From assembly GCF_003334335.1 (NCBI RefSeq), contig NZ_QOWQ01000169.1: 571 bases of DNA. One strand, written 5' to 3'. The DNA is from Escherichia coli (lineage in GTDB: Bacteria; Pseudomonadota; Gammaproteobacteria; Enterobacterales; Enterobacteriaceae). Within the stretch, counting starts at the first letter, position 1. Each line of letters begins with the position of its first letter. Under the pieces are notes generated by a model. The model was not told the DNA's origin. It ran no database searches and worked only from the letters and a program-made list of their open reading frames with translations. Positions 1 to 571 of this stretch are shown here, one piece after another. A program made the translations under genes and the position numbers.

Positions 1-571
1 TATCGGAGACATCGCGCAGCGGGGAGACAGTACGCTACCGCTACGATGACGCGCACAGTGAGTTACCGGCGACGACAACGGATGCGACGGGCAGCACCCG
101 GCAGATGACCTGGAGCCGCTACGGGCAGTTGCTGGCGTTCACCGACTGCTCGGGCTACCAGACCCGTTATGAATACGACCGCTTCGGCCAGATGACGGCG
201 GTCCACCGCGAGGAAGGCATCAGCCTTTACCGCCGCTATGACAACCGTGGCCGGTTAACCTCGGTGAAAGACGCACAGGGCCGTGAAACGCGGTATGAAT
301 ACAACGCCGCAGGCGACCTGACTGCCGTTATCACCCCGGACGGCAACCGGAGCGAGACACAGTACGATGCGTGGGGAAAGGCGGTCAGCACCACGCAGGG
401 CGGGCTGACGCGCAGTATGGAGTACGATGCTGCCGGACGTGTCATCAGCCTGACCAACGAGAACGGCAGCCACAGCGTCTTCAGTTACGATGCGCTGGAC
501 CGGCTGGTACAGCAGGGCGGCTTTGACGGGCGGACGCAACGTTATCATTATGACCTGACCGGAAAACTCAC
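1..571 (+). CDS. rhs: Rhs-family YD-repeat protein, internal fragment of the conserved core (partial at both ends; first complete codon at nt 3, last complete codon ends at nt 569)
   Basis: Frame with codons at 3,6,9... is open across the whole window (189 codons); plus frames 1 and 2 carry in-frame TGA stops at 106-108 and 47-49. Translation contains repeated xxGxxxRYxYDxxGRLxxV-type motifs (e.g. LYRRYDNRGRLTSV at nt 225-266, MEYDAAGRVISL at 417-452, RYHYDLTGKL at 540-569), which are diagnostic of Rhs/YD-repeat proteins. From memory the sequence closely resembles the E. coli-type Rhs core; the paralog (rhsA/B/C etc.) cannot be assigned from this fragment, so only the family symbol is given. 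GC-rich codon third positions are consistent with the known GC-rich Rhs core. Confidence 0.9.
33..569 (+). repeat. Tandem array of ~9 degenerate YD repeats (protein-level repeats of ~20-21 aa; RHS repeat family)
   Basis: In-frame Y-D (or variant Y-G / Y-N) dipeptide codons at nt 42-47 (YD), 120-125 (YG), 174-179 (YD), 237-242 (YD), 300-305 (YN), 363-368 (YD), 423-428 (YD), 486-491 (YD), 549-554 (YD). Spacing between successive motifs is 78, 54, 63, 63, 63, 60, 63, 63 nt. Each is preceded by a glycine-containing turn and followed by G-(R/D/K)-(L/V/A). Nucleotide-level similarity between units is low, so this is a protein-structural repeat rather than a DNA direct repeat. Confidence 0.85.

Follow-up and report, generated by a model that had tools for sequence, protein, structure and literature searches.

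Composition of an Escherichia coli rhsD core segment and its relation to the composition of the host

Rhs proteins form a shell that encloses a C-terminal toxin, and this toxin begins after a PxxxxDPxGL motif. In E. coli, the GC-rich core, the AT-rich tip and the atypical codon usage of the rhs genes are already known and have been documented since the 1990s. According to the work of the Hill laboratory, as summarised by Jackson et al. 2009 (PMC2935791), the combination of a G+C-rich core with an A+T-rich tip is a feature of the family. The same source describes rhs as an ancient family of the enteric bacteria, largely predating the Enterobacteriaceae, in which the core evolves independently of the tip, and in whose history gains and losses predominate, lateral transfer being occasional (PMC2935791). 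It further reports that base composition differs between genomes among rhs genes that belong to one clade, and that new modules comprising a tip and an immunity gene displace the old ones and leave orphan fragments behind, which is known as the C-terminal displacement model (PMC2935791).

The stretch of DNA analysed here (the window), which is 571 nt in its full length, is a fragment of the rhsD gene of E. coli K-12, a member of the rhsD-rhsE subfamily. Nothing distinguishes the window from this described gene, and the gene downstream is likewise ybbC. Megablast searches recovered the PGAP-annotated rhsD of strain MG1655 with 100% identity across all 571 nt, and likewise many other E. coli sequences; 3,660 of the 5,426 complete E. 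coli genomes carry the window, the median copy number being 3. Within the 4,281-nt coding sequence of MG1655 rhsD the window occupies nt 1499-2069, corresponding to residues 501-689 of the 1,426 residues of RhsD. As far as the rhsD locus itself is concerned, the window adds nothing new. Frame +3 (nt 3-569, 189 codons) is the sole stop-free frame, with 2-11 stops in each of the others. The peptide encoded in this frame was matched by the NCBIfam RHS_core model (NF041261) at 387 bits (E=1.8e-115) over model positions 505-693; the cut-off of 2000 bits for this model applies to the full-length protein and is out of reach for a fragment of 189 residues. For comparison, residues 1-329 of RhsD score 701.6 bits. 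The YD-repeat model TIGR01643 detected four stretches in the window peptide (E=3.6e-30), the best of them at residues 79-119, and Pfam PF05593 recovered four RHS repeats with i-E<=1.5e-6 along with two weak ones. An earlier note on this DNA had described it as part of an Rhs core, and the identity to rhsD, the RHS_core match and the four significant repeats bear out this description. The features of the window are as follows, with residue numbers referring to the window peptide:

1 to 571, + strand: internal segment of the rhsD core ORF in frame +3, with GC 0.620 and GC3 0.767, recognised by its stop-free frame, its identity and its RHS_core match
3 to 98, + strand: partial YD (RHS) repeat, residues 1-32, a weak match (PF05593, i-E=0.018)
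114 to 218, + strand: YD (RHS) repeat, residues 38-72 (PF05593, i-E=3.9e-09)
237 to 347, + strand: YD (RHS) repeat, residues 79-115 (PF05593, i-E=9.7e-13)
363 to 470, + strand: YD (RHS) repeat, residues 121-156 (PF05593, i-E=1.5e-06)
423 to 536, + strand: YD (RHS) repeat, residues 141-178, overlapping in register with the unit of residues 121-156 (PF05593, i-E=9.4e-09)
486 to 569, + strand: partial YD (RHS) repeat, residues 162-189, leaving the window at its end, a weak match (PF05593, i-E=0.058)

Homology thus shows the window to encode YD repeats that belong to the β-shell ('cocoon') of RhsD, which is among the Rhs polymorphic toxins encoded by E. coli K-12. [quoted passage not shown] These include Tse5 of Pseudomonas (8cp6; 8cp6_B, E=8.8e-51), the Rhs core of Salmonella bongori (8qjd, E=1e-40) and the Rhs family protein 7q97, itself a solved effector delivered by the T6SS. 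Such alignments support a predicted cocoon role, namely the enclosure of a toxin, for the window peptide. The similarity between RhsD and these effectors is one of sequence only. The N-terminus of RhsD gives weak matches to the Pfam PAAR_motif (E=0.11 and 1.1) in addition to a DUF6531 match (E=8.8e-19). To our knowledge K-12 has no functional T6SS, and the 13-15 kb to either side of its rhsD contain neither vgrG nor any tss gene; such genes adjoin several of the distant Rhs relatives.

Among the K-12 paralogs, RhsA of the rhsA-B-C-F subfamily has a like architecture, with a core of GC 0.616 and GC3 0.721 and a tip of GC 0.403, and shares with rhsD the AT-rich downstream genes and the orphan remnants that combine a core fragment with a tip. 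It differs from rhsD in having a distinct tip and a distinct immunity gene, and its nucleotide identity to the window region is 81.6%. A more general comparison can be made with horizontally acquired genomic islands, which resemble rhsD in their atypical GC content and codon usage and in their variable presence among strains. However, rhsD differs from most E. coli islands in deviating towards a higher GC and in having annotated flanks that lack a tRNA, an integrase or a complete mobile element, and the composition of Rhs cores, in contrast to that of acquired islands, tracks the host (see below). These annotated flanks consist of ybbP upstream, and of small AT-rich ORFs, the helix-turn-helix pseudogene ylbG and mnmH downstream, being mainly housekeeping genes; ylbG is the only possible trace of mobility among them.

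A single maximum-likelihood change-point of GC in the rhsD stretch of MG1655 was located at L001:17223, with GC 0.627 to its left and 0.338 to its right. Counting downstream from the end of the window, this point is reached after 1,652 nt, and the PxxxxDPxGL motif follows 24 nt later. In RhsD this motif takes the form PLQQIDPMGL at residues 1249-1258 (L001:17247-17276) and is outside the window. The earlier note had predicted a sharp drop of GC at a downstream boundary between core and tip; the drop is indeed present, beyond the limits of the window, which lies wholly inside the core. Sliding-window plots across the locus showed GC values of 0.57-0.72 along the core and of 0.31-0.37 along the tip. 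Taken as a whole the tip has GC 0.365 and GC3 0.178, and contains a DUF4329 domain (E=1.3e-37). The downstream ybbC is lower still (GC 0.306) and is annotated as a YbbC/YhhH family protein. In this family the gene downstream of the tip encodes the cognate immunity protein; ybbC is accordingly a putative immunity gene and the tip a putative toxin. Neither the rhsD tip nor ybbC had a match in NCBIfam. The step in GC may reflect the decoupled evolution of core and tip as separate modules, in which case tips and immunity genes would have been swapped in from an AT-rich pool in the manner envisaged by the C-terminal displacement model.

We also noted an orphan Rhs fragment downstream of ybbC (L001:18215-18901), with a partial core of 0.566 GC, a tip of 0.366 GC and a motif of its own, PVNGIDPLGL, at L001:18443-18472. 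After it come small AT-rich ORFs (18882-19372; 28-36% GC), and the fragment represents the 'dissociated tip' arrangement of Jackson et al. 2009 (PMC2935791). Directly upstream of the rhsD start there is an intergenic region of 430 nt (L001:13073-13502) with 28% GC. As a result, the 63% GC core has AT-rich DNA on both of its sides, and ybbP, which precedes the intergenic region, has 57.6% GC.

To place the composition of the window against that of its host we used six stretches of the MG1655 chromosome in which the rhsD and rhsA elements were masked, leaving 266 kb. The bulk GC of this sample is 0.517, and its 210 long-ORF proxy genes, when pooled, have 0.525 for GC and 0.567 for GC3 (gene-level sd 0.08). 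The window, with a GC of 0.620 overall and GC1/GC2/GC3 of 0.593/0.508/0.767 in frame +3, differs from this baseline (62.0% vs 51.7% for GC; 76.7% vs 56.7% for GC3), with z scores relative to the proxy genes of +2.1 (GC) and +2.6 (GC3). None of the 210 proxy genes matches the window in GC3 or in GC2, and two match it in GC. When background windows of the same size were considered, 1.2% were as high in GC (571 nt) and 0.85% in GC3 (189 codons). On its own the 571-nt window is therefore unusual, not unique. The full rhsD core of 3,774 nt has GC 0.633 and GC3 0.754, and its GC is higher than in any of the 2,364 background windows of that length (maximum 0.621). The statement of the earlier note that Rhs cores are richer in GC than their host accordingly holds for rhsD in both measures (0.633 vs 0.517 for GC; 0.754 vs 0.567 for GC3).

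The top background window of 3.8 kb comes from the phn operon of MG1655 (L006:1-9000), which has about 61% GC and a GC3 of 0.73; the six GC-richest proxy genes are all at the phn end of this stretch. Scans of the window with Rfam recovered no RNA family above threshold, and no tandem repeat was found in it at the DNA level; there is thus neither an RNA feature nor a DNA-repeat feature behind its composition. A sub-threshold match to CRISPR-DR20 at 232-270 on the minus strand (19.2 bits, gathering score 42, E=0.28) was taken as chance. On the same strand there are ORFs of 97 aa (255-548) and 73 aa (236-457), and frame -3 has only two stops. Both antisense ORFs are of the kind expected as shadows of a coding strand with high GC3 and provide no evidence of genes.

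The excess of GC was then decomposed into its amino acid and synonymous components. Given the window peptide and the codon usage of the host, the expected values are GC 0.552 and GC3 0.562, as against 0.623 and 0.767 observed in frame. Of the roughly 10 excess GC points, about 3 come from the amino acids and about 7 are synonymous. The former component is seen in the over-representation of Arg, Tyr, Thr, Gly and Asp in the peptide and in a GC2 of 0.508 as opposed to 0.412 in the host. The hand count of 37 G+C in the first 60 nt given in the earlier note is exact (61.7%), and its remark that G or C dominates the third positions holds. Within the window, each codon that it listed is more frequent than its synonyms, namely CGC (9/20 Arg), GGC (12/19 Gly), ACC (9/22 Thr), CTG (7/12 Leu), GAC (10/15 Asp) and CAG (9/10 Gln). 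These are ordinary preferred codons of E. coli, and the truly atypical ones are CGG, AGG, GGG, ACG and GAG. In the core CGG makes up 36% of the Arg codons vs 10% in the host and AGG 9% vs 2%, with comparable shifts in GGG (29% vs 15%), ACG (52% vs 27%) and GAG (63% vs 31%), and CGT, GGT, GAA and ACC, which E. coli prefers, are depleted. By Karlin's measure the core has a codon bias of 0.487 against the host, compared to 0.293 +/- 0.095 for 115 long genes, in which a bias at least as large was seen only for the highly expressed gapA, rpsA and pflB and for the AT-rich espX5. A comparison with the equally GC-rich phn operon further revealed a clear difference in codon usage (CGG 36% vs 8%; ACG 52% vs 26%), which indicates that the Rhs signature is more than a high GC3. 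We also observed that C exceeds G at the third positions of the window (C3 0.434, G3 0.333; 3-569) and that the order is reversed for the whole core (G3 0.419, C3 0.335; L001:13503-17276), and the synonymous bias is thus uneven along the core.

A first scan of genome contigs with the RhsD core yielded 25 loci, whose true hosts were all Enterobacteriaceae with a GC of about 50-57%. Cores from E. albertii, Pseudocitrobacter, Yokenella, Superficieibacter and Citrobacter had 0.58-0.63 GC vs 0.505-0.56 in their far flanks, and Enterobacteriaceae cores at 57-87% amino acid identity all retained a GC of 0.58-0.63. This range of host GC was too narrow for a test of whether the core tracks its host, and plasmid and chromid records were therefore used. 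The resulting set comprised 12 proteobacterial Rhs loci, with flank GC3 from 0.28 (Proteus) to 0.78 (Ralstonia). The flank baseline is a proxy for the host, made up of long ORFs next to the core (about 6-16 kb), in many cases on a plasmid, and the loci are not phylogenetically independent; for Proteus and Halomonas the ORF analysed was one without the DPxGL motif. In this set, core GC3 was correlated with flank GC3 (r=0.88, p=1.4e-4), with a slope of 0.98 and an intercept of +0.10. Core GC ranged from 0.44 to 0.71 across the 12 hosts and did not cluster near 62%. The offset in GC3 between core and flanks had a mean of +0.091 and was positive in 10 of the 12 loci (sign test p=0.039, Wilcoxon p=0.005). 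It was largest in E. coli rhsD (+0.190), Cronobacter (+0.176) and Serratia (+0.138), and was lacking in Moraxella (-0.004) and Rahnella (-0.066). Tip GC3 was below that of the flanks in all 10 loci with a delimitable tip. Hence, within the limits of a small sample with proxy baselines, the core does not show a fixed donor-like composition in different hosts and its GC3 follows that of the flanks. Two cyanobacterial YD proteins had no GC offset over their flanks.

Several explanations for the excess of GC are confined to the gene itself, and we consider none of them to have much force as a sole cause. A local fluctuation of GC in an ordinary gene might be entertained given the fraction of background windows that equal the 571-nt window, but this is refuted by the extent of the excess, which is uniform over the whole 3.8-kb core and places it above every background window of that length, and by its recurrence in rhsA and in relatives from other genera; the chance of it being right is negligible. 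The amino acid makeup of the YD repeats, with their Gly, Arg, Thr, Asp and Tyr, offers a more specific account, and the raised GC2 and over-represented residues of the window agree with it. Yet the decomposition by codons and peptide refutes amino acid content as the sole source, as it leaves most of the excess GC points and all of the GC3 excess unexplained, and the cyanobacterial YD proteins have similar repeats with no GC excess over their flanks, making this account very improbable. We would grant just as little to translational selection, under which a highly expressed gene using preferred codons would acquire a bias for G or C at the third position. The abundance in the window of CGC, GGC, ACC, CTG, GAC and CAG, which are common or preferred in E. 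coli, is what one would expect in such a case. The excess of the core is, however, in codons that E. coli avoids (CGG, AGG, GGG, ACG, GAG) at the cost of the preferred CGT, GGT, GAA and ACC, which indicates that it is not an expression-linked codon bias nor a stronger form of the preferences of E. coli itself. Moreover, gapA, rpsA and pflB have a GC3 of only 0.52-0.59, and the bias of the core is hence of another kind. The enrichment in rare codons effectively refutes translational selection as the sole cause. The rhs genes of K-12 are poorly expressed in laboratory conditions.

The remaining contest is between an origin outside the E. coli lineage and a process that acts on the core within its hosts. 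The earlier note had taken the composition to suggest a foreign origin, which is also the classical interpretation of the Hill laboratory. In its explicit form this means that the core is DNA whose donor had a high GC, of about 62% or above, and which was acquired by an ancestor of E. coli and has not yet drifted to the composition of its host, with the AT-rich tips having been acquired separately. The atypical GC, GC3 and codon usage of the core, unlike even those of the GC-rich phn operon, are in keeping with such a history, as are the offset of E. coli, the largest among the 12 hosts, and the absence of the window from part of the complete E. coli genomes, by which it is not universal in the species. 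Against it, the GC of the core is not fixed and follows the host with a slope of about 1. Even Ralstonia and Burkholderia, which are GC-rich themselves, have offsets of the same sign, and a donor still richer in GC is implausible in their case. Diverged Enterobacteriaceae cores have all kept within 0.58-0.63 GC, which is hard to reconcile with unopposed drift in an ancient family, and the annotated flanks of rhsD, mainly housekeeping genes, contain no tRNA, integrase or complete mobile element. We accordingly regard acquisition from such a donor as unlikely, although it deserves to be taken seriously. Tracking of the host together with a positive offset even in hosts at 65-68% GC is better fitted by long residence and a process favouring GC than by a single donor of high GC. 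Of the earlier claim, the part concerning atypical GC and codon usage stands; foreign origin as the only cause is weakened by the correlation with host composition and by the compositional variation within clades reported earlier (PMC2935791), and composition alone does not establish a foreign origin.

The reading that we favour, and hold to be probable as a whole, takes the window as a piece of an rhsD core with decoupled AT-rich tips. Most of the excess of GC in the core would then belong to an offset that is common to the family and follows the host, with an additional excess in E. coli. As to the main cause taken separately, opinion is evenly balanced on whether this is an intrinsic or maintained offset; purely foreign ancestry is given distinctly less weight, and some other or unknown cause less again. 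The offset could be maintained by a GC-favouring process in the often-recombining repeats of the core, for which GC-biased gene conversion is the most plausible candidate. Lassalle et al. 2015 (PMC4450053) report that GC3 is raised in recombining bacterial genes, mainly by way of non-optimal GC-ending codons and with optimal AU-ending codons depleted. This pattern is shared by the core, in which CGT, GGT and GAA are depleted and CGG, GGG and GAG enriched. In bacteria, GC-to-AT changes are in excess among the polymorphisms of native genes as well, and their polarisation is blurred when paralogs recombine, so that polarised substitutions among rhsD-type alleles of E. coli would not separate the hypotheses unless matched controls were used. 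Our literature search found no paper linking Rhs to biased gene conversion. The strongest version of this reading, in which the high GC of the core is a maintained offset that tracks the host, likely through GC-biased gene conversion, and not a fossil of foreign origin, is put forward tentatively, as less probable than its alternatives taken together. Since the offset in E. coli is twice the mean, a component of ancestry is possible, and the extra excess may reflect descent or transfer from an enterobacterial lineage somewhat richer in GC.

Should the offset prove to be maintained in step with the host, Rhs cores would constitute a clear natural case of recombination-associated enrichment in GC in bacteria, and would serve as a warning against taking compositional atypicality as proof of horizontal transfer. 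The classical deduction of a high-GC donor for the rhs genes of E. coli would then be largely a misreading of a signature of recombination.

In the course of the searches we noted a number of database records with doubtful labels. RhsD-like cores with 78-98% amino acid identity were found on short MAG contigs (1.2-4 kb; L007, L010, L016, L018, L021, L024, L026 and L027) labelled as Lentisphaerae, Collinsella, Bacillota, Sporosarcina, Flavobacterium, Alistipes and Planococcaceae, with an E. coli-like GC of 0.60-0.63 where measured. These are probably mis-binned contigs of Enterobacteriaceae, and such taxa were left out as Rhs hosts. Among the 'plasmids' of PLSDB there are records of chromosome size, namely NZ_OL790811.1 and NZ_OL790812.1 from Proteus mirabilis (4.08-4.09 Mb) and NZ_OL790696.1 (4.80 Mb) and NZ_CP134663.1 (4.90 Mb) from E. 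coli, which are almost certainly mislabelled chromosomes. Small plasmid records assigned to 'Klebsiella' (e.g. NZ_CP069916.1, 19 kb) contain rhsD at 99.5% identity, and may be derived from E. coli or misassembled.
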